Counted from the first letter of the stretch, positions 1,389 to 63,646 are shown. The stretch is DNA of 64,000 nt from a candidate division WOR-3 bacterium (GCA_965649265.1 CBFGKC010000006.1:32001-96000); one strand, 5' to 3'. Numbers and translations are program-made. Notes: generated from the letters alone by a model not told the origin.

Positions 1389-1416
1389 TTGACATGGCCT
1401 TAAATCCCTACATAAT
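1389..1416 (+). promoter_or_regulatory. sigma70-like promoter of secA (TTGACA-N16-CATAAT)
   Basis: Hexamers read directly; ATG 9 nt after the -10 box, no SD. Confidence 0.7.
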
Positions 1417-1425
1417 TAGAGTCTT

Positions 1426-4400
1426 ATGGCAAACTTCTTAGGAAAGATTTTCGGAACAAAACAGGAACGTGAGGTCAAGAGGATGACGCCTGTTGTCGAT
1501 GAGATCAATGAGATTCTCGTTGCCCTTCATGACTACAGGTCTAACCCGGTGCCGATAACACATCTTACAGGCATGAAGGAGGACGAGGTAAGGAGCCAGG
1601 CGCATGAGTTCGAGCGCCGCTGGAACGATTTTATCAAGAACATACCTCCCGAGGACCCGGAAAGACCGAAGAAAATTCGCGAGGCGGAGGAGAAAGCGGC
1701 CGAGTGGTTTTCTGAAAATGATAAAGGCGAAGCGCCGGAGTTTGACTGGCGGGCGATATACTGGGGCATAGAGCAGGAGGTGCGGTCCGTAAATTCGTGG
1801 GCCGCAGCGGGTGACGACTGGATTTGTGAGCATCTTGAGGATACGGTCGGGAAACCTTTATATAAAGTCCTGAAAGAGGAACTCGAAAAAAAGCAAAAGG
1901 GAGCTACGAAGTTATGGCTTGAGGCAAAGAAGCAGCTTCAGGCGAGAATCCGTCCCGCGATTGTCGCCCGGACACGAGCGTGGCAGAAGAAGTTCAAAGA
2001 CTTGACTCTTTCTATCCAGGAAGAAGCAAAAAAAGTGGATGAGACAGAGCGCAAAGAATTCTGGAAGAGGCGCGCCCTGGAAACGCTCGAGCCCATAATC
2101 GTGGAGGCCTTCACGATGGTTCGCGAGGCGTGTTACCTGCTTCTCGGAAACGTCTGGAACGTTCGCGGATTCGACACGGAGTGGGACATGTTCCCCTTCA
2201 ACGTGCAGGTAATCGGCGGACTTGCCCTTCACGAGGGCAAGATAGCCGAGATGAGAACGGGCGAGGGAAAAACACTCGTGGCGACGATGCCTCTTTATCT
2301 CAACGCCCTGATGGGACGCGGCGCTCACCTCATAACCGTAAACGACTACCTCGCTGCCCGTGACCGCGAGTGGATGGGCTCCATATACGAATATCTTGGG
2401 CTTACCGTGGGCGTCATCCAAACGGGCATGAATCCTGCGGAGCGCAAGCCCATGTACGAAGCCGATATCACCTACGGGACCAACAACGAGTGCGGTTTCG
2501 ATTACCTTCGCGACAACATGGTAATATCCCTTTCCCACAAGGTTCAACGCGCTCACGCCTATGCGATAGTCGACGAGGTTGACTCGGTTCTCATAGATGA
2601 GGCAAGAACGCCTCTCATCATCTCCGGTCCAACTGAATACGTGGACAGGGGGTACGCCCGTTTCAAGCCGGGGGTCGAAAAACTCTTCCGGCTGCAGCAG
2701 GGGCTTTCCAACGAACGGGTGAGCCAGGCAGAGAAGCTCATGGAGGAGGAGAAGGATATGGAGGCGGGGCGTGTGTTGCTCATGGTTCGCCGCGCGACAC
2801 CGAAGCATAAGCGGTTGCTTCGTATAGAAAAGGAAGGCCCCATGAAGCGTCTTATAGACGACATGGAACTTGCCCTGATGCGGGACAAGAAAATGCACGA
2901 GATCGACGAGGAGAACTATTTCACTTACGACGAGCACAATCGCGCGGTCGAGCTGAACGAGAAGGGACGCGAGATATTAAATCCGCAGGATCCAGAGGCG
3001 TTTACCTTGCCTGATCTTTCGACCGGCCTCGCGGAGATTGATAAGAGGGAGGATGTGCCCGTTCAGCAGAAGCTGAAATTAAAAGAGGCGCTTTACGAAG
3101 AGCATGCGCGCAAGAGCGAGATGCTCAACAACTATCATGCGCTGCTCAAGGCCTACGTGCTCTTTAACCGCGACGAGGATTATATCGTGGACGGCGGAAA
3201 AGTAGTCATCGTCGATCCTTTTACCGGCAGGCCTCAGCCCGGCAGGCGTTACTCCGACGGTCTGCACGAGGCACTTGAAGCGAAGGAGAGCGTTCAGGTT
3301 CAGGAAGAGACCCAGACTGTGGCATCAATCACCCACCAGAATTACTTCCGCATGTACGAAAAGCTCGCCGGCATGACAGGTACGGCTCTTACCGAGGCCT
3401 CTGAGTTCTGGAATATCTACAAGCTCGAGGTTCTCGAAATTCCCACAAACAAACCGGTGCGCAGACTCGATTATCCCGACATAGTCTACAAAACAAGGGC
3501 GGAGAAATACTCGGCGGTTATCGAAGAAATAGAAACGCTGCACAAATCGGGCAGGCCCGTGCTCGTCGGCACCACGTCCGTGGACGTTTCAGAAACACTT
3601 TCCCGAATGCTCAAACGTAAGGGAATTAACCACAACGTCCTCAACGCAAAGCAGCATCAGAGAGAGGCCGAGATTGTAAAAGACGCAGGCAGGCTCAACA
3701 GCGTGACCATCGCGACCAACATGGCAGGCCGCGGAACGGACATCAAACTGACACCCGAGGTCATGGACGTTGAAACCAGATGCAAGATACAGGATGCCGA
3801 GTTTGAAACCGACATCGATCGCATGAGGCGTTCGAAGGACTGCGACGAGGAGTATCCGACGGGGCTGATCATCATCGGTACCGAGCGCCACGAATCGCGG
3901 CGAATAGACAACCAGCTTCGCGGGCGTTCGGGTCGTCAGGGGGACCCGGGGGCGTCTCAATTCTTCCTGAGTCTGGAAGATGATCTTTTAAGAATCTTCG
4001 GCGCGGACAGGATGAACCAGGTCATTGAGCGTTTCGGCGGCAAGGAGATGGAACCTGTATCCTCGCCGTTCGTCACGACCGCTATCGAGAGCGCCCAGAA
4101 GAGGGTTGAGCAGAACAACTTCGAGATTCGCAAGAGGCTCTTGGAATACGACGACGTGATGAACAAGCAGCGCGAGGAGATATATGCCACTCGTGACGAG
4201 ATTCTTGCAGGCGAAGATCTTGACGGTCTGTGCCGTTTCATTTTCGGAGAGGTGATCGAGCAGCTCGTCGCCGAAAGGTGCCAGAGCCGCAACGGAGAGG
4301 AGTGGGAGTGGGAGGGTCTCGTGTCCGATTTCGTGAGCTATTTCATGCTCGATTTCCCGGTTCCCTCGCCCGATGAGCAAGCAAGAGTTAAGCGTGATGA

Positions 4401-10300: not shown

Positions 10301-10386
10301 TACTCAACCCTGCCGGGTTCAAGAACAAGGGTTTGTTCGTGAGGGACCAGAAAAGAGGAGATCAGAAACAGATACAGAGGGACCAT
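7336..10386 (-). CDS. Large putative outer-membrane beta-barrel protein
   Basis: 1016 aa ORF; hydrophobic N-terminus, alternating beta-strand pattern, terminal aromatic residue (GMYF); GSEKIWLD...DYVIDYSTG segment reminiscent of SprA-like proteins. Confidence 0.6.
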   Translation of the reverse strand: MVPLYLFLISSFLVPHEQTLVLEPGRVEYYLSDALIVEGSIIFDPPVTSKASIVSNRLILTPPPPETLEVILKYQTIAADSIEPYSLYEAKETTSFEPGDSLRNLEPASTAERLEVHGSKTLSLSLNDKGSSDLSQGLSVNMNGNLAGVDVSGHIADEQGAFVPEGTTERIEDFDRISVSLSQKNWKVNLGDIDLSDPFAGYGLLERRIKGASTGMSLGPVSTTGAFGIEGTKRGHSILSLVDGKRGPYLVGSAESAEPLVPGSEKIWLDTRLLVRGSENDYVIDYSTGAITFNSRIDIRSRSRAEVDYTYTGSDYAANNELLGVSAGPFGVYFYREADSRTHLFHTWSDSQQAILDTVTSSEAVVPGGVYVGSGSGSYLLSDDHFIWAGQGQGDYDVSFRLVDSTSGDYVLNPDSGFFIYTGPDAGNYKAEILTTLPGRQEALGVSFRKVFGPLGIDLSAAGSRLTSNLYNDTSYVFGHAHRIGVEAKWEKLGLNLSHSFGSQDVSLPVRTSDAAAADRWNMDSLPTYFNEQLLELEANPFDSLTIGIGGGHLWTAGHEFSGRASSRAPFFDLSGDWLKSRQRASIGIHPRFGIWTPLAGFSWARYDTVDMKQNFEPLLGLAMRPLSEIEIKLTGSRRIDQSLANDQETWQDTLYYDRIFFSADYGAKKIETRLTAGLDRFTIKNLPADTSWFFLFGDMGLEYSPSPRINISANLSQHPQSIEKEVLYYLPVTPGTGDYKRDPETGEYIPDEKGDYKLEIRKEEGAALAPQRKANLAADMSLAPAKIWVSLDYNDSYYSNSFAASSRVTLLPGYELLNVILSPSYRNGRFPAWGGADERQETWRADAELRSRVHPSYLLRLLGSFTSESRARNELALRTKTESSSWLAPVIDLWLRLEPQIGFANLVAEEPYYYPELGQIEIRRIWISADAEKTFKDWRTSAGFRLTQRLSNISQTELPYLIGQEDPLGLTPSWNAGVERSIAKGLSVRLSYTGTLYPDERGLTNEFKLSAGMYF

Positions 10387-10994
10387 TACCTTACTATCAG
10401 GATATGGGTAGGATCGGCAAGGTAGTAAACCAGCTTGTCCGTTATCGCCATCTGGTTTGTAAGATAAGCGATGGTTTCAGTTGTAAGGCCGAGACTTGAA
10501 AGCTCGTGATTCACCGTCGAATCCATCGGAAGCGGTTCGTTTTTTTGCAGGTAATAGATGCTGTCCGCGATGCACCATATAGAAAGCGGCGCTCTCGATA
10601 TGCTTCTTTCCTCAAGAATACTTCCCAGAGGGGAAAGCCGTCTTAATGTAAAGTCTGAAAGAACCCATAACTCACCGGAAGTCGTTAACGCAGCGTCGTC
10701 CGCATCATTGGCAACCGCTCCTCCTATCGCTTTCCTGAGATCGTAAAGCATCAGTTTTCTGCCTCTTAGCACGTAAAGCAGTTCGTCAAAATAAAGCAAG
10801 CGTTGAGCACCGCTTATTCTCTCCGGAAGCGAATAATTTGTCCACTCATCGTTGTCTTCAAGCACGAAAACTTCGTCTCCTGCTCGTGAAAGGAAAACCA
10901 GTCGCGAGTCTGGAGAGGCCGCCAGGGCTTTTGCAGGCTGTGGAAGTTGTAATGTGTCCACCCTTCCTATGAACAAGGCAAGAAAAAAGATCAC
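10386..10994 (-). CDS. Hypothetical exported protein (beta-propeller-like)
   Basis: 202 aa ORF, GTG start, hydrophobic N-terminus, 1-bp overlap with the downstream gene. Confidence 0.6.
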   Translation of the reverse strand: MIFFLALFIGRVDTLQLPQPAKALAASPDSRLVFLSRAGDEVFVLEDNDEWTNYSLPERISGAQRLLYFDELLYVLRGRKLMLYDLRKAIGGAVANDADDAALTTSGELWVLSDFTLRRLSPLGSILEERSISRAPLSIWCIADSIYYLQKNEPLPMDSTVNHELSSLGLTTETIAYLTNQMAITDKLVYYLADPTHILIVR

Positions 10995-11000: not shown

Positions 11001-11028
11001 AGGATAACCGTCACATCCCGGTAGTCAA
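11001..11028 (-). promoter_or_regulatory. sigma70-like promoter (TTGACT-N16-TATCCT), likely leaderless
   Basis: GTG start 6 nt after the -10 box. Confidence 0.6.
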
Positions 11029-11646: not shown

Positions 11647-11674
11647 AAGGTGGCCGGTTCGACTCGGCCACCTT
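11647..11674 (+). terminator. Hairpin between the two Spy/CpxP genes
   Basis: AAGGTGGCCG-gttcgact-CGGCCACCTT. Confidence 0.5.
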
Positions 11675-11700
11675 GCCATCACCTGAAAAAATACTATAAT
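11673..11700 (+). promoter_or_regulatory. sigma70-like promoter (TTGCCA-N16-TATAAT)
   Basis: Upstream of the RBS and ATG at 11748. Confidence 0.6.
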
Positions 11701-12266: not shown

Positions 12267-12297
12267 AGGGCTTGACTAACTCCTCGAAAAGGATTAA

Positions 12298-12332
12298 TAT
12301 GGCCGGAAGAGATTCCGGCCATAACCTTTTTT
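12298..12332 (+). terminator. Rho-independent terminator
   Basis: TATGGCCGGAA-gaga-TTCCGGCCATA followed by a T run. Confidence 0.7.
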
Positions 12333-13491: not shown

Positions 13492-13519
13492 TTGCACTTC
13501 CCTCAAAAGGGAGTATACT
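13492..13519 (+). promoter_or_regulatory. sigma70-like promoter of the hydrogenase operon (TTGCAC-N16-TATACT)
   Basis: Hexamers read directly, about 195 bp upstream of the probable start codon. Confidence 0.55.
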
Positions 13520-20095: not shown

Positions 20096-21174
20096 TGATC
20101 GACCGGAACATACCCGTCGTCGAAATCGAGAAATGGCTCAGGGAAGAGGACGAAATCAAGCTTGAGGAACTCTGGAAAACCGCTGATGGAATCCGAAAGC
20201 AAGAGGTTAGCGATCAAGTTCATCTGCGCGGGCTTTTGGAGATATCCAATCACTGCATTCGTTCGTGCGCTTATTGCGGACTCAGGAAGGAGAATCAAGA
20301 CCTCGCTCGTTACCGCATGACAGAACAAGAAATAATCGCCGGCGTGCAGGAGATAACGAGACTCGGATACGGCACCATCGTCATGCAGGCAGGAGAGGAT
20401 TGTGGGATCGATGCATTATGGCTTTCGGGAATCGTCCGTCGTATCAAACAAGAGACGCCGCTTGCAGTCGCGCTTTCCCTCGGCGAACGCTCAATCGAAG
20501 AACTCGGCTTGTGGAAACAGGCAGGAGCAGACCGCTATCTTTTGCGTTTTGAAACGTCTGATCCACTGCTTTATCAAAAGATACATCCTGCTCTGTCGGG
20601 CCGACACATAGACAGGTTCTCAATCCTGAAAGTTCTGAGGGAACTAGGTTATGAAACTGGCAGTGGGATAATGATAGGCATACCCGGACAAACATACTCG
20701 TCGGTCGCTGGTGATATCGGCATCTTCAGGCAGCTCGAACTCGACATGATTGGTGTCGGACCTTTCATCTCAAATCCTTCCACACCGCTCGGTTCGTCAG
20801 GCAGCATTCAGCAGTCGTGCAAAAACGACCAGGTTCCATCAACCAATCTTATGACTTATAAGGTGCTTGCCCTTTCAAGAATCGTTTGCCCCCAGGCAAA
20901 CATTCCGGCAACTACCGCTCTCGGAACACTCGATCCCGCAATGGGCCGAAGGCTTGCACTCTCAAGGGGTGCAAATGTGCTGATGCCGAATGTGACACCT
21001 GCCGGGTACCGCGAGAGATACCTCGTCTATCCGGGCAAGCCGGGCAAGCATGAAACATCAATGGTCGACATCCCCGGTTTCCTCTATTCTATCGGCCGCA
21101 GGCCGGGCAAAGGGCCAGGGGGAAGGCTTACCGATGCAGAGGGAAGTGGGCGAGGCTTTTTTCAGGACGAGTGA
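20095..21174 (+). CDS. hydE: [FeFe]-hydrogenase maturase HydE (radical SAM)
   Basis: RGLLEISNHCIRSCAYCGLR, GADRYLLRFET, PATTALG, GANVLMPN. Confidence 0.95.
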   Translation: MIDRNIPVVEIEKWLREEDEIKLEELWKTADGIRKQEVSDQVHLRGLLEISNHCIRSCAYCGLRKENQDLARYRMTEQEIIAGVQEITRLGYGTIVMQAGEDCGIDALWLSGIVRRIKQETPLAVALSLGERSIEELGLWKQAGADRYLLRFETSDPLLYQKIHPALSGRHIDRFSILKVLRELGYETGSGIMIGIPGQTYSSVAGDIGIFRQLELDMIGVGPFISNPSTPLGSSGSIQQSCKNDQVPSTNLMTYKVLALSRIVCPQANIPATTALGTLDPAMGRRLALSRGANVLMPNVTPAGYRERYLVYPGKPGKHETSMVDIPGFLYSIGRRPGKGPGGRLTDAEGSGRGFFQDE

Positions 21175-21314
21175 AATCTTAATCATATCATCATAGTCGA
21201 GAACCAGAAAAAATCCATATGAATCAGAACCATTCTGGGTTAAGTCTTTTGCGGTCCCTCTCTACAATTCTTGACGGATTTTTTGTGAAAGAATTATTCA
21301 AAACTTGACGGCAG

Positions 21315-21342
21315 TTGACATTTAGTTGTCCTTAGTTAAAAT
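21315..21342 (+). promoter_or_regulatory. tRNA promoter (TTGACA-N16-TAAAAT)
   Basis: Ends 10 nt upstream of tRNA-Arg. Confidence 0.7.
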
Positions 21343-21352
21343 ACCGTAATCT

Positions 21353-21426
21353 GCGCCCGTGGCTCAACTGGATAGAGCATCTGACTACGGATCAGAAGGT
21401 TGGGGGTTCAAGTCCCTCCGGGCGTA
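21353..21426 (+). tRNA. tRNA-Arg (anticodon ACG)
   Basis: Cloverleaf with acceptor GCGCCCG/CGGGCGT, anticodon arm TCTGA-CTACGGA-TCAGA and T-loop TTCAAGT; CCA not encoded. Confidence 0.97.
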
Positions 21427-21432
21427 CTTCAC

Positions 21433-21470
21433 TTAAGTAAAAAGCGGCTTTAAAGCCGCTTTTTACTTAA
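21433..21470 (+). terminator. Perfect 38-bp palindrome acting as terminator
   Basis: TTAAGTAAAAAGCGGCTTT|AAAGCCGCTTTTTACTTAA. Confidence 0.75.
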
Positions 21471-21479
21471 AGATTTAGC

Positions 21480-21507
21480 TTGACATTAATCGAGTTATAA
21501 CTATCCT
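21480..21507 (+). promoter_or_regulatory. tadA promoter (TTGACA-N16-TATCCT)
   Basis: Hexamers read directly upstream of the GGAGGTG RBS. Confidence 0.65.
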
Positions 21508-21550
21508 TAGAGTTAATGCTTAAGGGAATCTTTGTTCGAGGAGGTGTTTT

Positions 21551-22045
21551 GTGACAGACTCGGATGAGCGCTGGATGAGGGAGGCTTTAAGAGAGGCAGA
21601 GGCCGCTTACAGAGAGGGGGAGATTCCAGTAGGAGCCGTGGTCGTCCACGAGAATAAGGTGATAGGCAGGGGGCACAATCAGACCGAGCGCCTGCAGGAT
21701 CCTACCGCGCACGCCGAGATGATCGCGATAACGGCGGCAGCCTCGGCTCTCGGATCGTGGAGGCTTCTTGATACGGTGCTTTATGTAACTGCCGAGCCGT
21801 GTCTTATGTGTGCTGGAGCAGCAGTTCTTGCAAGGATTCCTCGGGTTGTTTACGGTGTGCGCGACCCGAAGTTCGGGGCGGTGAACTCCCTCTTTTCGGT
21901 GGGCAGTGACGAAAGGCTCAATCACAGGTTTGAAGTGAAAGAGGGGGTCTTTGCCGAAGAGGCTAAATCGCTCATGCAGTCTTTTTTTCGTGAAAGACGC
22001 AGGGCGGAGCCAAGTCGTACTTCAGAGATAGGGGAGGAGGTTTGA
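21551..22045 (+). CDS. tadA: tRNA adenosine(34) deaminase
   Basis: [52 protein letters not shown]. Confidence 0.96.
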
Positions 22046-22092
22046 TTGGCGAATATTTAAAAAGAGAGGCTCAAGTGGCCTCAAGGTTCAAA

Positions 22093-22177
22093 GGAGAGAT
22101 GGCCGAGTGGACGAAGGCGCACGACTCGAAATCGTGTAGGCCGAAAGGTCTCGGGGGTTCAAATCCCTCTCTCTCCG
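22093..22177 (+). tRNA. tRNA-Ser (anticodon CGA)
   Basis: Acceptor GGAGAGA/TCTCTCC, anticodon arm CACGA-CTCGAAA-TCGTG, long variable arm, T-loop TTCAAAT. Confidence 0.96.
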
Positions 22178-22276
22178 TTTATGAAAATGGATTACTGTCG
22201 AACGACGAAATTTAACCCAGGAGGCAATCGAGGTATTCCTTGCTTGTTTTTTTAAAAATCGACAGATAAGGAAGGA

Positions 22277-25200
22277 GTGAAGAATATGTTTAAACGAATA
22301 GCCCTTGCAGGGCTTCTTGCCTCGATTGTACTTGTTGCAGAGACGATAAAGATACCCGTAGAGCCTTTCAAGTCCAGGCTTGATGACCCCTACTACCGCA
22401 GCATCCTCGAACGCGCGGCAAAAACCCCAACATGGGTTAATACGGCCGCCCACGATTACTTACTTTCCCTGGCCGGCGCTGCTTTCCCGGAAACCTTGCG
22501 CGTTCTTGCCATTAGGGTCGAATTCGCGGAAGACGACGACTCTGCAACCTGGGGTAATGGAAAAATGGATCTTGAGGGCTTCGGCACTCCGTCGAACGGT
22601 CTTTCATACGACCCCCCCCATGACAGGGTGTATTTCGAAAACCAGATGCTCGGCCTCAGAAACTTCTATCTTTTGAACTCGCGGGGCAAGCTCAATATCG
22701 AGTACGATGTGTACCCTAAGGATCCTTTCAAATGCTACCAGGTTCCTCACAAAATGTCATATTATGGAGATACCAGCAATCCCGACAGGGGGCTTGTCCT
22801 TTTTATGCGGGACGCCCTGGAGGCGGCTTCGAAAGACCCTGATATAGACTTCTCAAAGTACCACTATAGCATCAACGAACAGAATTTCGACATGGTTGTC
22901 ATATTTCATGCCGGGAGTACCATTCAGACGTCATCGGCTTACGGTTACACCTCCGATCTTGCTTCTGCGACCGTAAGCTCCGCAGCCCTGGAATATTATA
23001 CCGGCAGTTCTTATTTTGACGCAAACGGTACACCTGTATCATCGGCTTCTATACTTCCGGAATCCCCAAGGGTAGAGGGTGCCATGAACGGTTTACCAGG
23101 CGTTCTTTACCACGAGTTCGCTCATCTCCTTGGTGCTTATGATCTGTATGACATTACGTACTACTCACAAGGTGTTGGTGCGTGGGCTCTTATGGGAGGG
23201 GGTGGATGGCTCAGCTATCCTCCCGGCCAGATTCCCTCAATGCACGATGCCTTTCACCGTTACTATTGGGGTTGGGACAGCGCAGTCGTTGTCACTCGTG
23301 ATACCACTATATCCCTTTACGCCGCAGAGATGGATACCCTTATGATTCCACAGAGGGGGGGGGCGGCTCATCCCACTCTCATAAAGATCCCGATCAGGGA
23401 GGGGGAGTACTTCCTTATTGAAAATCGCCAGGCGGATATCCTCGCGAAGGATACGGTTGAACTTGAACTTAAAGGCGGGGTGCCGATATGGGTCGTAAAC
23501 GGCGAGTACGACGCTTACCAGCCGGGCTCGGGTGTAATCATCTGGCACATTGACGAGGATGTGATATCGAGGTGGGGAACGTATAACAGGGTAAATGCAT
23601 GGTCACAATTCTCGGCCTACGGTGAGCATAATGCCGTGGATATGGAGGAGGCCGACGGCATCCAGGATTACGAGATCGCTTATCTTTCAACCGGAAGTTA
23701 TGCTTCTCAGGGTTCGATATATGACCCGTTCTTCAAGGGCGGCAATAACGAGTTCAACATAACCAGCAATCCGTCATCTTCCGGTTATTTCGGTGAGACC
23801 GGAATTAATGTTGAAGTACTCGACAGTTCAGATACAGTGATGCGTATTAAGATTTCCTTCGGCGAGAATCTTCGGGGTTTTCCTCAAATGGCCCCTTATC
23901 TTTCGGAGGTCGAGTCCATTAACGCCCTGGATCTCGACGGCGACGGTTCCAGGGAACTTGTCGCCTTTGGGGTCGGAAACACCTCACAAGAGTACAGGGT
24001 TGGTTTTGCCTGGAATCAGGATGGTTCTCCATATGCTGCCGAGCCCAATTTTATATCTTTCACTAACGATCGTCTGGTTTCTCCTCCAGCGTTCGGCGAT
24101 CTGGACGCAGACGCTCTTCCCGAAATAGTTCTTCTTGGAGGCGCAGGCAAGATTTCGGTATATGATCCCGATTCGCTTATCAATGGAGCAGTCGCGTTCC
24201 AGAAGTATACTTTTCTCGAGGGTAAGTTTTTTTCTGCCCCGATGCTTACGGATCTTGACGGTGACGATAAACTGGAAATACTTGCGGTGAACGAGACGGG
24301 AAAGATTTACGCGCTCGAGGTGGAATCTGATACGTTCAGCCTTTTCCCCGGGTACCCGATAGATATCGGTGAAGAAGCAAGACCGGGTTTTGCCCTGGTT
24401 GAAACTTCCCCGGTACGCATTGCGGTGCTGGCATCATCCGGAACCCTTTACCTCTTTGATGGGGCCGGAAAAATAGTCAAGGGTTTTCCCTTGGAGCTAG
24501 GACACGCATCTGCTCAATGCGAAGTACCTCCGGTGGTGGCCGATATTGACGGCGACGGAAACCGGGAAATCATAGTTTTTGCTTTTGAATATAACGTCTA
24601 CAGGTTTTTCGTCGTATCACAGGATGGCTCCGTAAAATACAAATCGACAAGAACCTTCACGCCGCCTATCACGGCGCCTGCCATTGCAGACGTCAATTCG
24701 GACAGCATTCCGGAGGTCGTTTTCGGGTCAGCCAACGGTCTGTGGGCTCTTGAAGCGGATGGTTCTTCCGCATCGGGTTTCCCGGTTATATTTCCTGACT
24801 CATACGACAGGCTTGTCTGGATAGAGCATGAAGGGTATATCTATCCCTTTGTCTTTCCATACACCTTCGCATTCCGAACCTCGCCCGTTGTTGCCGATTT
24901 TGACGCGGACGGCGCTATGGAGATTGCGATAGGCTCTCCCGATCACGGTGTGTATCTTGTCAAATCAGGAGCGAGCAGTCCCTATAAAACCCTGTACACA
25001 AGATGGGGAGTGGGAAAGGCTCTTTCCCTGGCCGACCTCGACAAGAAAAATGGACTTGAGATTTTAGTTGCATCCGACAGCGGTTATATTAACGTCTGGA
25101 AGTCAAGCGCGGTTGCAGCGCAGTGGTCTTCATGGATGCACGATCCGGCGAACACCGGCCTTTTCTCAGGGGATGTCAAAGCTTCCGCTCAACCTCCATT

Positions 25201-25480
25201 GCCTCTTTCATCGGTTTATGTTTATCCTAATCCCGCAGGCGATCATGCCTATCTTCGTGCTATTCTGGGTGATGTCGATGAATTAAAAGTGCAGGTTATA
25301 GACATCTCCGGTAAAATTCAAGGGACGCTTGAACCCGAATTCCAGCCTGGGATGACTAACGATATTCCTCTCGACAAAATCCTTCCCGATTTGGTTCCAG
25401 GGCTTTACATCGTCAGAGTCGAGGCAATTGCAGGTAGCGAAAAATCAGTCGAACTCTACAAACTTGGCGTAGTTCGCTAG
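22277..25480 (+). CDS. M6-family (immune inhibitor A-like) metalloprotease with FG-GAP repeats and a T9SS-type C-terminal domain
   Basis: HEFAHLLGAYDLY, GAWALMGGG, EYFLIENRQ, GVIIWHIDE; DLDGDG repeats; VYVYPNP...GLYIVRV tail; start may be ATG 22286. Confidence 0.88.
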   Translation: MKNMFKRIALAGLLASIVLVAETIKIPVEPFKSRLDDPYYRSILERAAKTPTWVNTAAHDYLLSLAGAAFPETLRVLAIRVEFAEDDDSATWGNGKMDLEGFGTPSNGLSYDPPHDRVYFENQMLGLRNFYLLNSRGKLNIEYDVYPKDPFKCYQVPHKMSYYGDTSNPDRGLVLFMRDALEAASKDPDIDFSKYHYSINEQNFDMVVIFHAGSTIQTSSAYGYTSDLASATVSSAALEYYTGSSYFDANGTPVSSASILPESPRVEGAMNGLPGVLYHEFAHLLGAYDLYDITYYSQGVGAWALMGGGGWLSYPPGQIPSMHDAFHRYYWGWDSAVVVTRDTTISLYAAEMDTLMIPQRGGAAHPTLIKIPIREGEYFLIENRQADILAKDTVELELKGGVPIWVVNGEYDAYQPGSGVIIWHIDEDVISRWGTYNRVNAWSQFSAYGEHNAVDMEEADGIQDYEIAYLSTGSYASQGSIYDPFFKGGNNEFNITSNPSSSGYFGETGINVEVLDSSDTVMRIKISFGENLRGFPQMAPYLSEVESINALDLDGDGSRELVAFGVGNTSQEYRVGFAWNQDGSPYAAEPNFISFTNDRLVSPPAFGDLDADALPEIVLLGGAGKISVYDPDSLINGAVAFQKYTFLEGKFFSAPMLTDLDGDDKLEILAVNETGKIYALEVESDTFSLFPGYPIDIGEEARPGFALVETSPVRIAVLASSGTLYLFDGAGKIVKGFPLELGHASAQCEVPPVVADIDGDGNREIIVFAFEYNVYRFFVVSQDGSVKYKSTRTFTPPITAPAIADVNSDSIPEVVFGSANGLWALEADGSSASGFPVIFPDSYDRLVWIEHEGYIYPFVFPYTFAFRTSPVVADFDADGAMEIAIGSPDHGVYLVKSGASSPYKTLYTRWGVGKALSLADLDKKNGLEILVASDSGYINVWKSSAVAAQWSSWMHDPANTGLFSGDVKASAQPPLPLSSVYVYPNPAGDHAYLRAILGDVDELKVQVIDISGKIQGTLEPEFQPGMTNDIPLDKILPDLVPGLYIVRVEAIAGSEKSVELYKLGVVR

Positions 25481-25490
25481 AGGAGCAGAG

Positions 25491-26141
25491 ATGGGATTTT
25501 TTATTTCACTTATTTTGTTGACGCAGGGAATATCTACCACGACAGATTCGCTGCAACTTTCAAGAAAAGAAAGACTCGCTCCGTGGGCTTCACTCGCTCT
25601 TCCCGGGACAGGCGAGCTTATGCGAGGTTATCGAGTCAAGGGAGAGCTTTTTCTCTGGTTGGATGGATTGACTATTGCAGGTGTTACCGGATTCGGCATC
25701 GATGCCCTTGAAAAGAACAATGCGGCTTGCGGCATGGCCGTGATGAATGCGGGGGCCAATCCGGCAAATCGTTCCCATACGTACCTCAGTGCAATGGAGA
25801 GCTACCTTTCCTCTGACGATTACAACATCGATCTCGCGATAGAAGCCCGCTATCTCTACCCGGACGATCTTACAAAGCAAAAAGAGTACATAGACGCTCG
25901 CAGCATCAAGGAAGAGGACGTATGGTTGTGGAACTCTGATTCGATAAGAATCGAATACTTCAAGGAAAGAACCGCGGTCAGGCGTTCACAGCAAACCGCT
26001 CAGATTCTTGCAGGCGTTATGGTCGTTACCCGGATAGTGAGCGTTTTTGATGTCTCCTTCTTCTCACCGCGAAAAGAGGCAAATCTCGGCATCATTCCGA
26101 GTTTGGATACCCCCGGAATTTCGCTTGTTTACCGCTTTTAA
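25491..26141 (+). CDS. Hypothetical membrane/exported protein
   Basis: SLALPGTGEL motif, hydrophobic segments, GAGGAG RBS, operonic spacing. Confidence 0.65.
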   Translation: MGFFISLILLTQGISTTTDSLQLSRKERLAPWASLALPGTGELMRGYRVKGELFLWLDGLTIAGVTGFGIDALEKNNAACGMAVMNAGANPANRSHTYLSAMESYLSSDDYNIDLAIEARYLYPDDLTKQKEYIDARSIKEEDVWLWNSDSIRIEYFKERTAVRRSQQTAQILAGVMVVTRIVSVFDVSFFSPRKEANLGIIPSLDTPGISLVYRF

Positions 26142-26144
26142 CAT

Positions 26145-27710: not shown

Positions 27711-27825
27711 TCGGTTCCCTTTCAGTTAGAAGGCTTTTCCATCCCGGTCGCTTTTGTTTGAAGAGATGTTTATGAGTTAAACTTGATCCTCTATTGAATT
27801 TACAAACCAAAGCGCTATGAAAGTG

Positions 27826-27848
27826 GAAGGCCCGCATTGCGGGCCTTC
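27826..27848. terminator. Hairpin between convergent genes
   Basis: GAAGGCCCGC-att-GCGGGCCTTC. Confidence 0.7.
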
Positions 27849-27889
27849 AATATCTTTTTCAAGCTTTTCAGACTAACCTGAAAAGTTTT

Positions 27890-29479: not shown

Positions 29480-29510
29480 GCGACCTCCTTGTGCATTATT
29501 CATGATTAAA

Positions 29511-29538
29511 ATTGTAAAGATTTTTCGCGAATTGTCAA
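29511..29538 (-). promoter_or_regulatory. sigma70-like promoter (TTGACA-N16-TACAAT)
   Basis: Divergent from the grpE promoter. Confidence 0.65.
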
Positions 29539-29568
29539 CCCCCATAGAGAGATTAACTTAGCAATTAG

Positions 29569-29577
29569 TTATCCACA
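29569..29577 (+). promoter_or_regulatory. Consensus DnaA box TTATCCACA
   Basis: Perfect 9-mer, 7 bp upstream of the grpE -35 box. Confidence 0.45.
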
Positions 29578-29584
29578 AGGTCAC

Positions 29585-29612
29585 TTGACGCAGCCCGCTT
29601 TCTTTTTATAAT
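29585..29612 (+). promoter_or_regulatory. grpE-dnaK operon promoter (TTGACG-N16-TATAAT)
   Basis: ATG 10 nt after the -10 box, no SD. Confidence 0.7.
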
Positions 29613-29622
29613 GTGACATCAG

Positions 29623-30168: not shown

Positions 30169-30175
30169 AAGAATT

Positions 30176-36618: not shown

Positions 36619-38366
36619 TATCGCACGAAATCGTCGAGCGCGTCAGAACCGAAACCGACATAGTCGGGCTCATCGGCGAGTACGTCACTCTCAAGCGCTC
36701 GGGACGCAGTTTTACAGGGCTTTGCCCTTTTCACCAGGAGAAGACGCCTTCGTTTAACGTCAGCCCTGAAAGGCAGGCCTACCACTGCTTCGGCTGCGGG
36801 GCAGGCGGAAACGCCTTGACATTCATAATGAATTACGAAAACGTAACTTTCCCCGAAGCCGTAAAGAAACTCGCCGAAAGACTCGGGATAAAGATCGAAT
36901 ACACCGCCGAGGACGATCCTACAAAGCCTCTTTCCGACGCACTCGAGATCGTCCACAAGCTTTACCAGGATACCTTGTGGTCGCAGGACGGGTTAGAGGC
37001 CCAGCGCTATCTTGCCTCACGCGGTCTAAAAAAAGAAACAATTAAGAACTTCGGGCTGGGACTTGTTCCCCAGGACGTATCATTGCTCATCCACCGAGCG
37101 CGCGAGGCCAAACTCAGCACGAATACACTTGCGGAAGCCGGGGTTCTGGGAACCCGCTCCGGCAGTCACTATCCGTTTCTTGGGGGCAGGATTGTTTTTC
37201 CTATCCGTACTTCATCCGGCAAACTCGTAGGCTTTTCCGGTCGCATCTATGGCGAGGACTCCAATCCTGCCAAGTACGTCAACACCCCCGAGACCAGGCT
37301 CTTCAAGAAGGGGCAGCTTCTTTACGGGCTTTCCGAGGCAAGGCCTTATCTGAGGCGTGACGGTGCATTGATCGTCGAGGGTCAGATGGACGTCTTAAGG
37401 CTCAGTCAGGATGGTTTTCACAACGCAGTAGCTCCTCTGGGAACGGCATTCACCAACGACCATGCGAAGCTGCTCACACGCTACGCCGATTCCTGTATCC
37501 TTCTTTTTGACGGCGACGAGGCGGGACGCAAGGCGGCGCTGCGAACCCTGGGTGAGGTACTTGCTTCGGATCTTGATACAAGGCTTGTTCTACTTCCTGA
37601 GGGGGAGGACCCGGCGAGCTTTCTTTCAGGACACCAGGCAGGCGAGCTTGCAGAAATCATAAAGAACGCGGAAGAGCCCGTAGGCTTTCTTTACAAGCTT
37701 CTGGCTCCTGAGGGTACAGGCGCGACCAGACGGACGGCAGAGCTGATGATATCTATAATTCGTCGGGTTCCTGACAGGTTAAGGCGTGAGCTGTACATAG
37801 ACGAGGCGGCCAAATTCATTGGTGTGGACAGGAAGATCATAGCGGAAAGGATTTCTGCATCGAGCCCGGACGCACACAGGGTTTCGGGTACTAGATCTAC
37901 AAGAAACGTTACGGGTATGGGTGTTACGGGTGTTACGGGTGGGTTAAGATTCTCGGAATCTGAGGATGTGCTTTTCCGAATGATGGTAGCGAGTTCGGAG
38001 TTCGTTCGCATGGCTTCTGAACATCTTCCTTCTTCTCTTTTTGAAGAAGCGGAGAAGAGGGAGCTTTTGGAGAAGCTTTACGAGACGGCCAGGGAGCGCG
38101 AGCAATTCACCCCGGGGGACATACTTGATTCTTTGTCTCCCGAAATGCAGCGCAGGGTTTCAGCCTGGAGTCTTTCGGAATTACGTTATTCGAGAGAAGA
38201 GTTCGCGAGGGCTCTTGCTCACTATATATTTCAGCGCACGCGTGACAGGCTGCGCAGCGACCTCAAGGAGGCCGAACGCGCGGGTGATGCGGAGCGTGCA
38301 AAGAGTCTGCTCGGTCAGTTGAATTCATTGGTTAAAGAAAGCAACAAAATCTATCAGGGCATATGA
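36615..38366 (+). CDS. dnaG: DNA primase
   Basis: [11 protein letters not shown]...HCFGCG zinc finger, [20 protein letters not shown] and FDGDEAG. Confidence 0.97.
37908..37940 (-). repeat. Three CCCGTAAC(A) motifs in frame inside dnaG
   Basis: GTTACGGGTATGGGTGTTACGGGTGTTACGGGT encodes [11 protein letters not shown] in the primase linker. Confidence 0.8.
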
Positions 38367-40006
38367 AGAAGAATAAAAACAATTCACCCGCTGCCGCGCC
38401 TTTGCGCGGCAAGGAGATCGCTGAGGAGATTCTCAAGCAACTCAACGATCGGCAAACGATAACTTACAAGGAACTTGAGACCCATCTTCCGGAGACATAC
38501 GTTTCATCGGACGAGGTAGACGAGATAATCGTCAGGCTTCGCGATGGGGGGGTAATGCTCGTTTCCGACGGCGAGGAACGTCCGGAGGAGTCAAAAGAAA
38601 AAACGGGCAAACTGCCCAAAGTAAAGGGTCGCAAGGATTCGACTCGTTCGTATTTCAAAGAACTCAACAAATTCGGACTTCTCACGAAGGATGATGAAGT
38701 CAAGTACTCTAAGCAGATGGAGGAGGGATATTCGACACTTCAGCGAGAGATATTTTCTGCAACAGGAGTAGTCGATCAGCTTATCCTGCATTGCAGAGAG
38801 ATTGAAACCGGTGAGAGACCGGTTGACCAGATAGCCAAACCCGACATAGATTCAGTACTTGACAAAAAACTCTATTTACGCTGGAAGCAGCAATTTTTAA
38901 GGACAACAGCCAAGGTCGCGGAATACAACGAGATGATTCGCGAGGTAACCAAGCGCAGAAACCGGACAAAGGAGGAGGAGGAGGCTCTGGGCAAGTTTCG
39001 CGACAAACTATATCAAAAGATACTTGGGCTTTCTTTGCAAATGGAAGTCGTGAAAGACTACTCCGAAAGGTATAGAAGAGAGGTAGAAGAGCTTATAAAG
39101 ATAGATTCACAGGCTTTAAAAATAAAAGCAAAGGCCGAAACCGACTCCAAGGTGCGTGAAGAATACCAGGAGCTTCGCAACGAGCTCCGTCGTGCCGAGC
39201 GTAACTTCGGCAGACCCCTTGACGAAGCACGTGCAAGTCTTGCACACGTTCTGGAAATTGAGAAGGTGATTCTTGGAGCCCGTGATCATATGATCGAGGG
39301 TAACGTACGCCTCGTTATCTCCATTGCGAAGCGCTATACAAACCGCGGGCTCGAATTCATCGATTTGATTGCCGAAGGAAACTGCGGTCTTATAAAAGCC
39401 GTCGAGAAGTTCGACTACAAAAAAGGGTACAAGTTTTCTACATACGCGACATGGTGGATCAAGCAGGCCATCACGAGAGCGATTGCCGACCAGTCGCGTA
39501 CGGTTCGCGTTCCCGCGCACATCATTGATGCCATCAACAAGATAACTCGCGTGTCAAGGCGTTTTATTCAAAAACACGGGCGTCTTCCCGGCCCGAACGA
39601 GATTGCACACTATCTTCCCTCGTTCAGCGAGGACAAGGTGAAGTTCCTCACGAACATTGCCCAGTACCATGTCTCTCTGGATAAATCCATAGACGACGAC
39701 AACTCTTCCTTCGTCGGTGATTTCATCTCCGACGACAAGACACCTGTTCCTACCTACCATGCGGCCCGGTCGGTTCTGGAAACCAAGATCGATGACGCAC
39801 TAGGAACGCTCTCGAAGCGCGAGGAGACCGTCCTCAGGCTTCGCTTCGGCGTGGACGACGGTGTGCAGCGCACTCTCGAAGAAGTCGGTCAGATATTCAA
39901 CGTCACCCGCGAACGAATCCGTCAGATTGAGGCAAAGGCGATCAAGAAGCTGCGTGACCCGTCGCGTCGAAAGATATTCGACCCCCTCAAGGAATTGCTC
40001 AGATAA
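38363..40006 (+). CDS. rpoD: Primary sigma factor RpoD (sigma70)
   Basis: [65 protein letters not shown]; follows dnaG. Confidence 0.96.
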
Positions 40007-40262: not shown

Positions 40263-40290
40263 TTGACAGGCTCGCTTTGCGCCTTATAAT
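40263..40290 (+). promoter_or_regulatory. sigma70-like promoter (TTGACA-N16-TATAAT)
   Basis: Perfect consensus hexamers. Confidence 0.75.
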
Positions 40291-49023: not shown

Positions 49024-49089
49024 TTAACTAACGTTAAAATAATTATAGGAAAACAGAGTGCTTTGTCAAGTATTTTTAACTATCGATAA
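49024..49089 (-). promoter_or_regulatory. Promoter TTGACA-N16-TATAAT (49042-49069) flanked by two putative TetR operators
   Basis: TTAACTAACGTTAA at 49024 and TTAACTATCGATAA at 49076. Confidence 0.65.
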
Positions 49090-57421: not shown

Positions 57422-57449
57422 AGTCTACGCAGTCCATTCGATTAGTCAA
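57422..57449 (-). promoter_or_regulatory. hgcA promoter (TTGACT-N16-TAGACT), likely leaderless
   Basis: ATG 5 nt after the -10 box, no SD. Confidence 0.65.
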
Positions 57450-57481
57450 CGCGCGTAAACAGGAGACCTGGGTAATTCCTC

Positions 57482-57509
57482 TTGACTCCGCGCCCGGTCT
57501 GCATATAGT
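57482..57509 (+). promoter_or_regulatory. Divergent promoter (TTGACT-N16-TATAGT), likely leaderless
   Basis: ATG 57517 lies 7 nt after the -10 box. Confidence 0.65.
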
Positions 57510-57993: not shown

Positions 57994-57997
57994 ATCT

Positions 57998-59928: not shown

Positions 59929-59956
59929 ATTATAGAAAGGTAAACGTATGCGTCAA
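59929..59956 (-). promoter_or_regulatory. SDR promoter (TTGACG-N16-TATAAT)
   Basis: Hexamers read directly. Confidence 0.7.
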
Positions 59957-59965
59957 GGATTAATT

Positions 59966-59996
59966 CCCCATAAAGGTTCAAAGAACCTTTATGGGG
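59966..59996. repeat. Long intergenic hairpin
   Basis: CCCCATAAAGGTTC-aaa-GAACCTTTATGGGG. Confidence 0.7.
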
Positions 59997-60171
59997 ACCT
60001 CAGCGTTACAGAAATTGTCTCTGATTTGTCTGAGTTGTGCCGAGCGGAAACGAGGTTTTGCATTCAAACGCGGAATTCCATTCCGCGCATGCGCCTCCGG
60101 CGCTCGCTTCCATTAGCTCTCCTTGATTCAGGCTGGCCAGGGGGATACTCTGTGTCCCTTTGGGGCGTCAC

Positions 60172-60199
60172 TTGACCTTTTCGTTTTTCCGACTAATCT
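60172..60199 (+). promoter_or_regulatory. nfeD promoter (TTGACC-N16-TAATCT), likely leaderless
   Basis: ATG 8 nt after the -10 box. Confidence 0.6.
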
Positions 60200-60207
60200 A
60201 TATCTAA

Positions 60208-61512
60208 ATGAAAGCTTGTCTCAGAACAATCATCCTTGCCGGTTTTCTTGCTCTGCCGTTGCTTGCGAGAGCTGCAGCTTCCACCTATGCCGTGCTCGAA
60301 TTCGACGGCGCAATCGGCCCTGTTGCCGAGCGCTATATATCCAACGGAATAGACCGCGCGGTAGGGGAGGGGGTCTCGTTCATCCTCCTCGAACTCGATA
60401 CGCCCGGCGGACTCGACGAGTCCATGCGCGCCATAGTCAAAAAGATCCTCGCCTCGCCCGTGCCCGTCGTCGGCTACGTCTATCCCCAGGGTGCACGCGC
60501 GGCTTCGGCGGGCGTCTTCATCATGCTTGCTTGCAACGTGACGGCGATGGCACCCGGAACCAACATGGGCGCCGCACACCCGGTTAACCTGGGCGGGCAG
60601 CAGCCCGACTCGGTCATGATGGGCAAAATCGAGAACGATGCGGTGGCGTTCATTCGTTCGATAGCCGAGAGACGCGGCCGCGACGCGGACTGGGCGGAAA
60701 AATCCGTCCGCAAATCGGTATCCGTCTCAGCAGAGGAGGCCAAAAGGCTCGGCCTCGCCGATTATATCGCCTCGTCGCCCGAAGAACTCGTAAGGGCGCT
60801 CGACGGCCGCGTCGTCGAAACGTCCTCAGGCAAAGTAAAGCTAGAGACCGCCTACGCCCGCGAGGTAAAGGTCGGCATGCGCTGGTTCGAAAAACTCCTC
60901 GGAGTTCTCTCCAATCCCAACCTCGTCTACATCCTCATGATGATAGGCATCTACGGACTCATCGCGTGGGTGCAGAACCCCGGCTCGATATTCCCGGGTG
61001 TCATAGGCTTCATCGCGCTCGTGTTCGCGCTTTACGGGCTCCAGGTCCTGCCCGTCAATTACGCGGGACTGGCCCTCATAGGTCTTGCAATATTGCTCTT
61101 TATCCTGGAGGTGAAGGTCACCTCGCATGGAATGCTCGCAGTAGGAGGCATTGTGTCGTTGATTCTTGGAACCGTTATCATGTTTCAATCTGTCCCGGCA
61201 GCGTTCGGGATCTCGTGGCCGGTCATCATCATCGTCATCGCGATAGTAGCCGCGCTTCTGGCGCTCATCGTCTACCTTGCCGCGCGCGCGCACGTCCGCA
61301 GACCCACGACGGGAGAGCAGGGAATGATAGGCTGGACCGGCGAGGCTCGTTCCGACCTTTCCTTATCCGTCGAAGGCTCCGTCTACGTTCACGGCGAGTA
61401 CTGGACTGCGGTGCCCGCCGACTCGTCCACCAAAATCAAAAAGGGCGAGCGCGTCAAGGTCGTCGCCATGGACGGCATGGTGCTAAAAGTCGAGCCCGTA
61501 ACACACCCTTAG
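60208..61512 (+). CDS. nfeD: NfeD family membrane-bound ClpP-class serine protease (long form)
   Basis: LDTPGG, ARAASAG, MAPGTNMGAAHPV, TM region, C-terminal OB fold GSVYVHGEYWTA. Confidence 0.92.
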   Translation: MKACLRTIILAGFLALPLLARAAASTYAVLEFDGAIGPVAERYISNGIDRAVGEGVSFILLELDTPGGLDESMRAIVKKILASPVPVVGYVYPQGARAASAGVFIMLACNVTAMAPGTNMGAAHPVNLGGQQPDSVMMGKIENDAVAFIRSIAERRGRDADWAEKSVRKSVSVSAEEAKRLGLADYIASSPEELVRALDGRVVETSSGKVKLETAYAREVKVGMRWFEKLLGVLSNPNLVYILMMIGIYGLIAWVQNPGSIFPGVIGFIALVFALYGLQVLPVNYAGLALIGLAILLFILEVKVTSHGMLAVGGIVSLILGTVIMFQSVPAAFGISWPVIIIVIAIVAALLALIVYLAARAHVRRPTTGEQGMIGWTGEARSDLSLSVEGSVYVHGEYWTAVPADSSTKIKKGERVKVVAMDGMVLKVEPVTHP

Positions 61513-61846: not shown

Positions 61847-63613
61847 TCAGGAACGATAAACATGCTCAGACAGTTTGTCTAGGGTAGGAATAATGTCATA
61901 CCACTCTTTCGTATTAGCAAGATGATAAAGAATCGAAATAACCGTATTTAGCCTTTTATGGAATCTGTCAGATGTTCTGTAATCCTTATTTTCAAATTCT
62001 CTGAGACTTTTCTCGAAAGCACTGACTATTGCAATAACAAGTTTTCTGTCGAAGAGACCTTCGTCTTTTTGGAGGAGTATCCTTGCCAGATAGGCTAAAT
62101 AGAAAGATAATTCTTTAAGTGCTTTTAAAGGTATTGGACATTGGTTATAAACAATGGCGTTTGAGAATTCTTGCACAGCATTTTTAACGGCATTAAATTT
62201 TTCGTGTTTGATAAGAAGAAATGCGAAGATGTATGACTGAAGATACAATTTCCTAGCATCTTCATCCCAAACATCTCCAAAAAGTTGTGGATCAACAAAG
62301 CTAAGGCAACGGTTTCCGAATCTTATTAGACTCTCCAAAAACCACCCTTGGTTCCTAGGAAGATTATCTGTATCTTTCAGGAACTTCATAAGGTATTTTA
62401 ATGTATTGATTGCGTTAAAGGTTTTAGTCAAATGCACTTTTTTGGGTCCATCGTCTTTCTTTATGCAGGCTGATAATAATTCAATAAAAGTGGAAGTAAT
62501 ATTACCTTCATAGCTCTCTCTAATGAAGCCTAGCAGAAGAAGCTCTGTTCGATCCAGAAACGCGTTTAAGTGTTCGTGCCACCCTCTTTCTATGTGATTG
62601 TTATAAATCCTCAACTCGGTAGACAAGAACATATATCTTGCCGTTTTAGCATTCTTATCATCTTCCGTCTCGTTTTCTAATTTATAATCAGTTAAATTAA
62701 CACAAGCACGAGCACAGTGCATAGAAAGGTCTTCTAATTTGTCACTAGTGCAGAATATTTCAATTTCTGAGATTAAAAATGCGACATCTTCACAAGTCTG
62801 ATAAAAATGCCTATCAAATGCTTCCTTGGCGATTCTTTCGCTTTGATCAACGATAATACGAGGTGCGCGGCGATTCTGCAAGACTTCTTCGCATACTTCT
62901 ATGAATCTTTCTCTCATCTTAGATTTATATTTATTCCATAAAGGAAGTGAAATTTTTCCAGCAGTACCGTACTCTTCAAGCGATAATGTAAAATCCATAA
63001 GTGCTTTTTGAACTATCTCGAAAGCCTCAAAGTTGAGGTCATTGAACGCGCCCATGCCAATATTTTCTAATACGTTTATAAGTTCATCAGTTTTTCCTTC
63101 CCGTTCTTTTTCTCTGTGCTTGACGTTGGATATTTCCTTAAGTGCCTTATCCTTGAGTTTAACAATAACCTGCCCAATGTTCATGCGCTTCTTCAAATCA
63201 AGGAAGAAGGGAATTAATAAAACAACCATCACTGAACCATAGGCGAATGAAATAAATGACCCCAAACCATTTGGTTTACTAAGGAATGCCAAAGGGATAA
63301 TGATAGAAGCAGCAAAGAGGATCATGTAGCCGATTACCCATTTGTTAAAGATGATCTGCATTGTTCTATGGGTGTACTTAGTTACGAATTGAGTGGCAAT
63401 CAGGGTAATTGAAAAAACAAGGGCAAACAACGCCGCAAGCACCTGAGCGGTTGCGCTAAGAAGGTATTTGTGAGTATCAGGAAATTCAGCTTTCGTATTT
63501 AGCCAAGCCCACAAGCTGTGACGAGTCAGGAAGACGACGACTGCAATCATAAGGATTGCAATAACCCCTATCCCGATCAAAAACGCTTTGTTGAACCTCC
63601 TGCCGTTACTCAT
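61847..63613 (-). CDS. AT-rich membrane protein (DUF2254-like N-terminal TM domain)
   Basis: YLLSATAQVLAALFALVFSITLIATQ..KYT and further TM helices, long helical C-terminus; start placed at ATG 63613. Confidence 0.7.
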   Translation of the reverse strand: MSNGRRFNKAFLIGIGVIAILMIAVVVFLTRHSLWAWLNTKAEFPDTHKYLLSATAQVLAALFALVFSITLIATQFVTKYTHRTMQIIFNKWVIGYMILFAASIIIPLAFLSKPNGLGSFISFAYGSVMVVLLIPFFLDLKKRMNIGQVIVKLKDKALKEISNVKHREKEREGKTDELINVLENIGMGAFNDLNFEAFEIVQKALMDFTLSLEEYGTAGKISLPLWNKYKSKMRERFIEVCEEVLQNRRAPRIIVDQSERIAKEAFDRHFYQTCEDVAFLISEIEIFCTSDKLEDLSMHCARACVNLTDYKLENETEDDKNAKTARYMFLSTELRIYNNHIERGWHEHLNAFLDRTELLLLGFIRESYEGNITSTFIELLSACIKKDDGPKKVHLTKTFNAINTLKYLMKFLKDTDNLPRNQGWFLESLIRFGNRCLSFVDPQLFGDVWDEDARKLYLQSYIFAFLLIKHEKFNAVKNAVQEFSNAIVYNQCPIPLKALKELSFYLAYLARILLQKDEGLFDRKLVIAIVSAFEKSLREFENKDYRTSDRFHKRLNTVISILYHLANTKEWYDIIPTLDKLSEHVYRS

Positions 63614-63618
63614 GGTTG

Positions 63619-63646
63619 ATGATAGGCTGGGGGAGTGGGATGTCAA
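63619..63646 (-). promoter_or_regulatory. Promoter (TTGACA-N16-TATCAT), likely leaderless
   Basis: ATG 5 nt after the -10 box. Confidence 0.65.

Follow-up and report, generated by a model that had tools for sequence, protein, structure and literature searches.

The 64-kb stretch of DNA analysed here, which we call the window, encompasses coordinates 32001 to 96000 of contig C6 (GCA_965649265.1, CBFGKC010000006.1) in an assembly from a candidate division WOR-3 bacterium. The assembly, designated G000, comprises 2.74 Mb in 27 contigs and has a G+C content of 51%. In this genome the -35 and -10 boxes of sigma70-type promoters are most often separated by 16 bp, and this spacer length is the preferred one throughout the class to which the bacterium belongs, which is that of Candidatus Stahlbacteria. 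The 16-bp class-wide mode is a real feature and a variant of the canonical promoter architecture.

Genome-wide distribution of spacer lengths

The pattern TTGACA-Nx-TATAAT has 3, 91, 22, and 1 matches in the whole genome when the two boxes are separated by 15, 16, 17, and 18 bp, respectively. With TTGACN-Nx-TA[TAC]A[AT]T, referred to below as the strict pattern, the corresponding numbers are 9, 293, 55, and 6, while about 10 matches are found at irrelevant spacers and 2 to 4 in reversed-pattern controls. The raw count at 15 bp is at background level, and after subtraction of the background spacers of 16, 17, and 18 bp account for 84%, 15%, and 1% of the sites, respectively. A second scan was anchored at 1754 intergenic -10-like sites and presupposed no spacing. 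Upstream of these sites TTGAC occurred 8, 248, 46, and 3 times at 15, 16, 17, and 18 bp, and mostly 1 to 10 times, with a maximum of 15, at other offsets. An unbiased genome-wide scan had been named by the first-pass annotation of the window as the means to refute its claim of a strict 16-bp spacing, should the mode fall at 17 bp; the mode fell at 16 bp. The claim holds as far as the mode is concerned, but the word "strict" slightly overstates the case, as about 15% of the near-consensus promoters have a 17-bp spacer.

Most of these matches are located where promoters are expected. According to our own gene calls, 250 of the 293 strict 16-bp matches are intergenic and 43 lie within called coding sequence; 188 are co-oriented with a gene start at most 300 nt away (median 49 nt), and another 41 are wrongly oriented or located inside a gene. 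The 293 sequences are all unique, and therefore they do not stem from a repeat family. Across the genome, the excess of 16-bp spacers is far beyond chance.

It is very improbable that the excess is an artefact generated by chance, by a dispersed repeat carrying both boxes, or by a shifted register of the hexamers. Such an origin would agree with the noise that a loose pattern produces across the window (see below), but it is at odds with the uniqueness of the matches, with the low counts in the reversed-pattern controls, and with the scan anchored at the -10 box. The matches listed for four genomes of the survey described below (G006, G003, G265, and G081) are also diverse sequences. Furthermore, the identical fixed patterns give 17-bp modes elsewhere, namely in family f43 of the same phylum and in two Bacillota genomes. 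In the latter, the matches at 16, 17, and 18 bp (control counts in parentheses) were 30 (19), 83 (22), and 54 (33) in the first genome and 49 (44), 108 (44), and 47 (32) in the second, with the peak at 17 bp in both.

Some points must be set against the 16-bp reading. The test of intergenic location and orientation depends on crude gene calls, the strict pattern detects near-consensus promoters only, and in Escherichia coli K-12 this pattern gave no signal (8, 3, and 4 matches versus 7, 11, and 30 in controls), which makes E. coli unusable as a control of the method. There was no signal either with the strict pattern in an Eiseniibacteriota genome (3, 5, and 3 matches).

Spacer length across the phylum

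The RpoD protein encoded in the window is 75% and 74% identical to those of its closest-named relatives, metagenome-assembled genomes (MAGs) of Candidatus Stahlbacteria bacterium. According to the available text of a published report, Candidatus Stahlbacteria is the candidate phylum WOR-3, a member of which is now in culture (PMC12285271). Three fixed patterns were applied unchanged to 272 genomes of this phylum, in which genomes are labelled G and families f; counts are given below in the order 16/17/18 bp. All 132 genomes of the window's class had more matches at 16 bp than at 17 bp. In addition to the window genome (293/55/6), this is illustrated by G011 (254/14/5) and G019 (506/56/16), both with a 16-bp mode, and by G016 (369/44/18). 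The 16-bp share of the near-consensus promoters reaches 92 to 100% in f2, f6, and f9, and the least skewed families are f10 and f13, the latter including G177 (152/101/41).

Outside the class the picture is different. Families f20, f29 to f31, and f43 have a 17-bp mode, which is strict in f43 (27/409/16 in G265 and 15/326/8 in G268); further examples are G063 from f20 (47/167/20), G116 from f30 (21/112/15), and G114 from f29 (0/60/6). Both 17 and 18 bp are used in f21 to f24 and f26, as in G075 from f23 (12/63/33), and in f24 the peak is at 18 bp (20/58/88 in G081). Families f15, f34, and f35 lean towards 16 bp, and f33, f38, and f39 are about even. Sites matching TTGACN-N(16-18)-TAHAWT are almost absent, often fewer than 10, from f26 to f28 and f42 (for example G107 to G113), and most of these genomes carry reverse gyrase; these families may have another promoter architecture or G+C-rich genomes. 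A spacer of 15 bp was at background level in all five genomes tested for it. A MAG labelled Cloacimonadota (G275, 57/154/18) was considered as a 17-bp outgroup and rejected, as it was placed in the window's own phylum, with counts equal to those of G064 from f20.

The background-subtracted mean spacer of 31 representatives ranges from 16.00 to 17.55 bp and follows the clades on a sigma A tree, which is a quick tree with support from the SH-like approximate likelihood ratio test (SH-aLRT) only. The use of 16 bp in all genomes of the class and of 17 or 18 bp in other clades makes a lineage-specific, class-wide shift in promoter geometry well supported.

Box sequences and promoter class

The TTGAC of the -35 box emerged unprompted in the scan anchored at the -10 box. 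Among the 293 strict 16-bp matches its sixth position is A in 69%, and within the pattern the -10 box has T at the third position in 66% and A at the fifth in 76%. A C is found directly 5' of the -35 hexamer (cTTGACA) in 60% of these promoters, and T is avoided at this position (5%). The extended -10 motif TGn, with TG at -15/-14, occurs at about chance level in the window genome, in 13 of the 293 promoters with a 16-bp spacer (4%) and in 3 of the 55 with a 17-bp spacer.

These promoters resemble the canonical sigma70/sigma A promoters of E. coli and Bacillus subtilis (TTGACA-17±1-TATAAT) in their hexamers, in their placement upstream of genes, and in the canonical sigma regions 2.3/2.4 and 4.2 of the cognate factor. 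They differ from them in their 16-bp mode, which is accompanied by a minor 17-bp class and no use of 15 or 18 bp, whereas the canonical distribution is centred at 17 bp and flanked by 16 and 18 bp, as well as in the lack of TGn and the preference for C before the -35 box. The 16-bp mode departs from the 17-bp-centred distribution of sigma70-type promoters, yet it is within the accepted range of 16 to 18 bp. A TTGACA-like -35 box, a TATAAT-like -10 box, an orientation upstream of genes, and an encoded primary sigma factor were all found. Judging by these sequence features, the sites in the window appear to be ordinary housekeeping sigma A (sigma70-type) promoters, with cTTGACA and TATAAT boxes, in which the preferred spacer would have changed.

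The rRNA promoters of E. coli also have 16-bp spacers, and the promoters of the window genome share with them this spacer and a good -35 box. It could then be argued that the optimum of the enzyme is still 17 bp and that a sub-optimal 16-bp spacer is combined with near-consensus boxes to produce short-lived, tunable open complexes, as in those rRNA promoters. The boxes are indeed unusually near consensus, the 91 perfect TTGACA-16-TATAAT sites being found in 2.7 Mb. We nevertheless regard this explanation as quite unlikely. In the window genome 16 bp is the default of the whole genome and does not mark a regulatory subclass, the 84% of near-consensus promoters that use it and the still higher shares in f2, f6, and f9 not being one gene class. 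The discriminator, that is the 7 nt after the -10 box, is A/T-rich (G 0.12 to 0.18, C 0.14 to 0.29), unlike the G/C-rich discriminator of the E. coli rRNA promoters. An 18-bp spacer should be no less sub-optimal but is unused, and f43 has even more near-consensus promoters, placed at 17 bp.

Promoter-like sites in the window

All 15 sites reported by the first-pass annotation are present in the window at the coordinates given there, with exactly 16 bp between the hexamers and the general form TTGxxx-N16-(T/C)AxxxT. Sites on the minus strand are named by their low coordinate, at which the -10 box ends. Two sites, 40263..40290 (plus strand) and 49042..49069 (minus strand), have the sequence TTGACA-16-TATAAT, with 12 of 12 matches to the consensus.

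The other sites on the plus strand are, in order, TTGACA-16-CATAAT at 1389..1416, followed by a 1157-amino acid open reading frame (ORF) with its ATG at 1426; TTGCCA-16-TATAAT at 11673..11700, with an ORF beginning at 11748; TTGCAC-16-TATACT at 13492..13519, in which the -35 box is weaker; TTGACA-16-TAAAAT at 21315..21342, whose -10 box is followed after 10 nt by a tRNA gene (start at 21353); TTGACA-16-TATCCT at 21480..21507, with an ORF beginning at 21551; TTGACG-16-TATAAT at 29585..29612; TTGACT-16-TATAGT at 57482..57509; and TTGACC-16-TAATCT at 60172..60199, with an ORF whose ATG is at 60208. The minus strand includes TTGACT-16-TATCCT at 11001..11028, followed by a minus-strand gene at 10386-10994; TTGACA-16-TACAAT at 29511..29538, the divergent partner of site 29585; TTGACT-16-TAGACT at 57422..57449, which is paired divergently with site 57482; TTGACG-16-TATAAT at 59929..59956, with an AAGGAGG Shine-Dalgarno sequence and a start codon downstream; and TTGACA-16-TATCAT at 63619..63646. 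The sole 17-bp candidate, TTGACT-17-TAATAT at 12272..12300 (plus strand), is doubtful because its -10 box overlaps a terminator hairpin at 12298-12323.

An independent scan of the window, in which a site had to contain TTG and to match 4 or more of the 6 positions in each hexamer and 9 or more of all 12, and in which the same kind of crude gene calls were used, gave 3, 2, 11, 1, 1, 1, and 2 intergenic matches at spacers of 14 to 20 bp, respectively; in regions called coding the numbers were 3, 4, 14, 4, 4, 4, and 6. Five of the 15 sites (13492, 57422, 57482, 60172, and 63619) are absent from the intergenic list, either because they are located under ORF starts over-extended by the crude caller or because they fall below the threshold of the scan. 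When context is ignored, the loose pattern TTG[AC]NN/[TC]ANNNT has 50 matches at 16 bp over the whole window, compared with 17 to 48 at other spacers, while TTGACN/TANNNT has 13, 2, and 5 matches at 16, 17, and 18 bp, respectively. The loose pattern is noisy window-wide, and therefore the observation in the window depends on the filter for intergenic location and orientation or on stricter hexamers.

Three promoters with orthologs in relatives from the same family (29585, 40263, and 49042) keep both boxes and the 16-bp spacer. For site 29585 the 16 bp are kept in three relatives (G006, G003, and G002). Site 40263 is kept in G001, and in G006 and G003 it has a different spacer sequence of equal length. 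The ortholog of site 49042 in G004 is TTGACG-16-TATAAT, again with a different spacer sequence. No ortholog of site 21480 was found in the stretches of the relatives that were examined. The 16-bp length and the boxes are kept in these orthologous promoters while the spacer sequence drifts.

Two additional characteristics of the window sites were observed. Three back-to-back divergent pairs of 16-bp promoters are present, at 29511-29612, 57422-57509, and 59929-60199, with their -35 boxes 46, 32, and 215 bp apart, respectively. At several sites only 5 to 10 nt separate the end of the -10 box from the earliest possible start codon (1389-1426, 11001-10994, 29585-29623, 57422-57416, and 60172-60208), which suggests leaderless or near-leaderless mRNAs, or mis-called starts. 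A look-up of public sequencing runs covering positions 20501-30500 of the window listed none with RNA.

DNA topology and spacer length

Differences in the twist of the DNA in vivo could in principle produce different spacer modes with an unchanged polymerase. The optimum of the enzyme would be 17 bp on E. coli-like DNA in all clades, which would differ in supercoiling set-point, temperature, or ions, and the spacer would be shorter where the DNA is relaxed or overwound and longer where it is underwound. This expectation is in line with the thermodynamic model of Forquet et al. (2022), in which, as described in the available part of that paper, relaxed DNA favours short spacers and strongly negative supercoiling favours long ones (PMC9303308). 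The variation of the mean spacer across clades is quantitative, as expected of a physical variable. In addition, reverse gyrase, found over the family cut-off in 51 of the 272 genomes, is concentrated in clades with 17-bp or 17/18-bp promoters (f21 to f25 and f27 to f32), and within the window's class it is present in f10, which is richer in 17-bp promoters than most of its sister families.

The correspondence is incomplete. Reverse gyrase was not found in the 16-bp families f1, f6, f9, and f12, which include that of the window, nor in the 17-bp families f20 and f43; genome G013, which carries it, still has a 16-bp mode (211 versus 54); and f13 is as mixed as f10 without it. A gyrA gene was over the cut-off in all five genomes tested, among which all three modes (16, 17, and 18 bp) are represented. 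Moreover, 1 bp corresponds to about 34 degrees of twist, presumably much more than plausible differences in unconstrained supercoiling would produce over 17 bp. In the available text of Forquet et al. it is also stated that spacers of 16 nt do not fit their model (PMC9303308). That work and ours have in common that spacer preference is seen as a problem of torsional alignment, continuously shiftable; as far as its available text goes, the former deals with promoter-to-promoter regulation in one species, whereas here the mode is shifted lineage-wide and is not tracked by topoisomerase gene content (PMC9303308). The topological explanation is weakened by these observations and we consider it unlikely; topology may modulate the trait without accounting for it.

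Sigma A and core polymerase as possible determinants

The gene for the primary sigma factor, rpoD, is located in the window (38363..40006, plus strand) and encodes a 547-amino acid protein that scores 337 bits with TIGR02393, just below the 354-bit cut-off. Over regions 2 to 4 it shares 55% identity with the RpoD of E. coli. It includes regions 1.2 to 4.2, as expected of a primary sigma factor, with a canonical recognition helix in region 4.2 and canonical regions 2.3/2.4. Since region 4.2 is canonical, the same box should be read alike. A second gene of the sigma70 family is present elsewhere in the assembly (C1:82741-86430), with a 511-amino acid open frame that scores 141 bits with the RpoD C-terminal model.

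The explanation that we favour, and consider reasonably likely, is that the preferred spacer of sigma A promoters moved from 17 to 16 bp in this class and that holoenzyme geometry determines it. In the RNA polymerase holoenzyme the -10 box is read by sigma region 2, which is located on the beta-prime clamp, and the -35 box by sigma region 4, which is located on the beta flap; the distance or the rotational phase between these two regions would be slightly different among clades, and the promoters of each genome would have co-evolved with the geometry of its holoenzyme. As the mean spacer of the clades is near-continuous from 16.0 to 17.55 bp, it probably reflects a continuous quantity, such as an angle or a distance, and not a one-residue insertion. 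The extracytoplasmic function (ECF) sigma factors and Staphylococcus aureus sigma B, which have short spacers, are a precedent for a spacer set by the architecture of sigma and core, according to the available text of the corresponding reports (PMC11156646, PMC6372665). Those factors recognise other boxes and have no region 3 or short linkers, unlike the full-length group 1 sigma factor described here, with its unchanged linker and canonical boxes.

Two substitutions were found that could participate in such a change of geometry. Sigma region 3.0 has the sequence A-H-I-I-D in the window, where E. coli has V454-H455-M456-I457-E458, and it is A-H-I-(I/L)-D class-wide; the 17-bp family f43 keeps a canonical region 3.0, V-H-M-L-E. 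In E. coli sigma, H455 and E458 read the TG of the extended -10 motif. The substitution in the class fits the absence of TGn from the promoters of the window genome as well as its frequency in f43, where, by a hand count of the 49 matches with 17 bp listed for G265, about 29 carry it. The second substitution directly follows the zinc-binding domain of beta-prime; there, AHIW(F/Y)YK...PSRIG is replaced class-wide by H(P/I/V/T)(L/F)(F/Y)Y...PSKIG. Both segments presumably face the promoter spacer. On the basis of these alignments the two substitutions are candidate determinants of the spacer, and they are leads only because the 16-leaning families f15 and f34 remain unexplained by them.

Several results count against a holoenzyme determinant of this kind. 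Both substitutions are class markers and are therefore confounded with phylogeny; f15 and f34 keep the canonical motifs in region 3.0 and in beta-prime, and f10 and f13 are mixed, at about 60:35, in spite of having the substitutions. The sigma linker is constant, regions 2.3 and 4.2 being 153±1 residues apart in all 31 representatives, and no conserved sigma A column cleanly separates the groups in the 31 sequences. Genomes with 16-bp promoters are split from those with 17- or 18-bp promoters only by one column of the conserved C-terminal part, a variable position that we assign to region 3.2, and by three columns of the variable N-terminal half. No group-specific insertions or deletions were found in the beta flap tip helix or at the beta-prime N-terminus. 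The rpoB reading frame of the window genome (C9:117744-121421) contains a short stretch of N, translated as XXXX, immediately past the flap tip.

The first-pass annotation had proposed a holoenzyme with a shifted spacer preference. The shift is borne out at the level of the lineage; that the holoenzyme is its cause is what we infer. No determinant was found in sigma A, in the beta flap tip, or at the beta-prime N-terminus.

Relation to previous surveys and significance

The 17-bp spacer has been treated as a near-universal constant around which promoter predictors and cross-phylum surveys are built. In the available text of the ProFinder preprint (10.64898/2026.09.23.753901) the median was 17 bp in all genomes tested and no phylum was under the equal-use baseline; seven phyla were described there as "indistinguishable from baseline", and the window's phylum may be among them. 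A study of 49 species found predominantly 17 bp with a model trained on E. coli, as stated in the part of the paper available (PMC12641261). Our literature search, which was of limited scope, found no 16-bp mode for a primary sigma factor in any lineage and no promoter study in WOR-3. Predictors that apply E. coli spacer penalties will mis-score promoters in lineages such as this one.

We tentatively suggest that the spacer optimum of the housekeeping polymerase, rather than being constant among bacteria, is a heritable, gradually evolving trait, which in WOR-3 would have reached 16.0 bp in the window's class, strictly 17 bp in f43, and an 18-bp mode in f24. Small changes in holoenzyme geometry may set it, and the hundreds of promoters in each genome may have followed them, region 3.0 and the beta-prime segment being the first candidate determinants. 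A class with 16-bp promoters beside sister clades that use 17 or 18 bp with the same boxes is a natural comparison set for the control of the spacer by holoenzyme or topology. Spacer preference is also relevant to the choice of promoters for genetic tools in WOR-3, for which the available text of PMC12285271 indicates that a cultured member exists.

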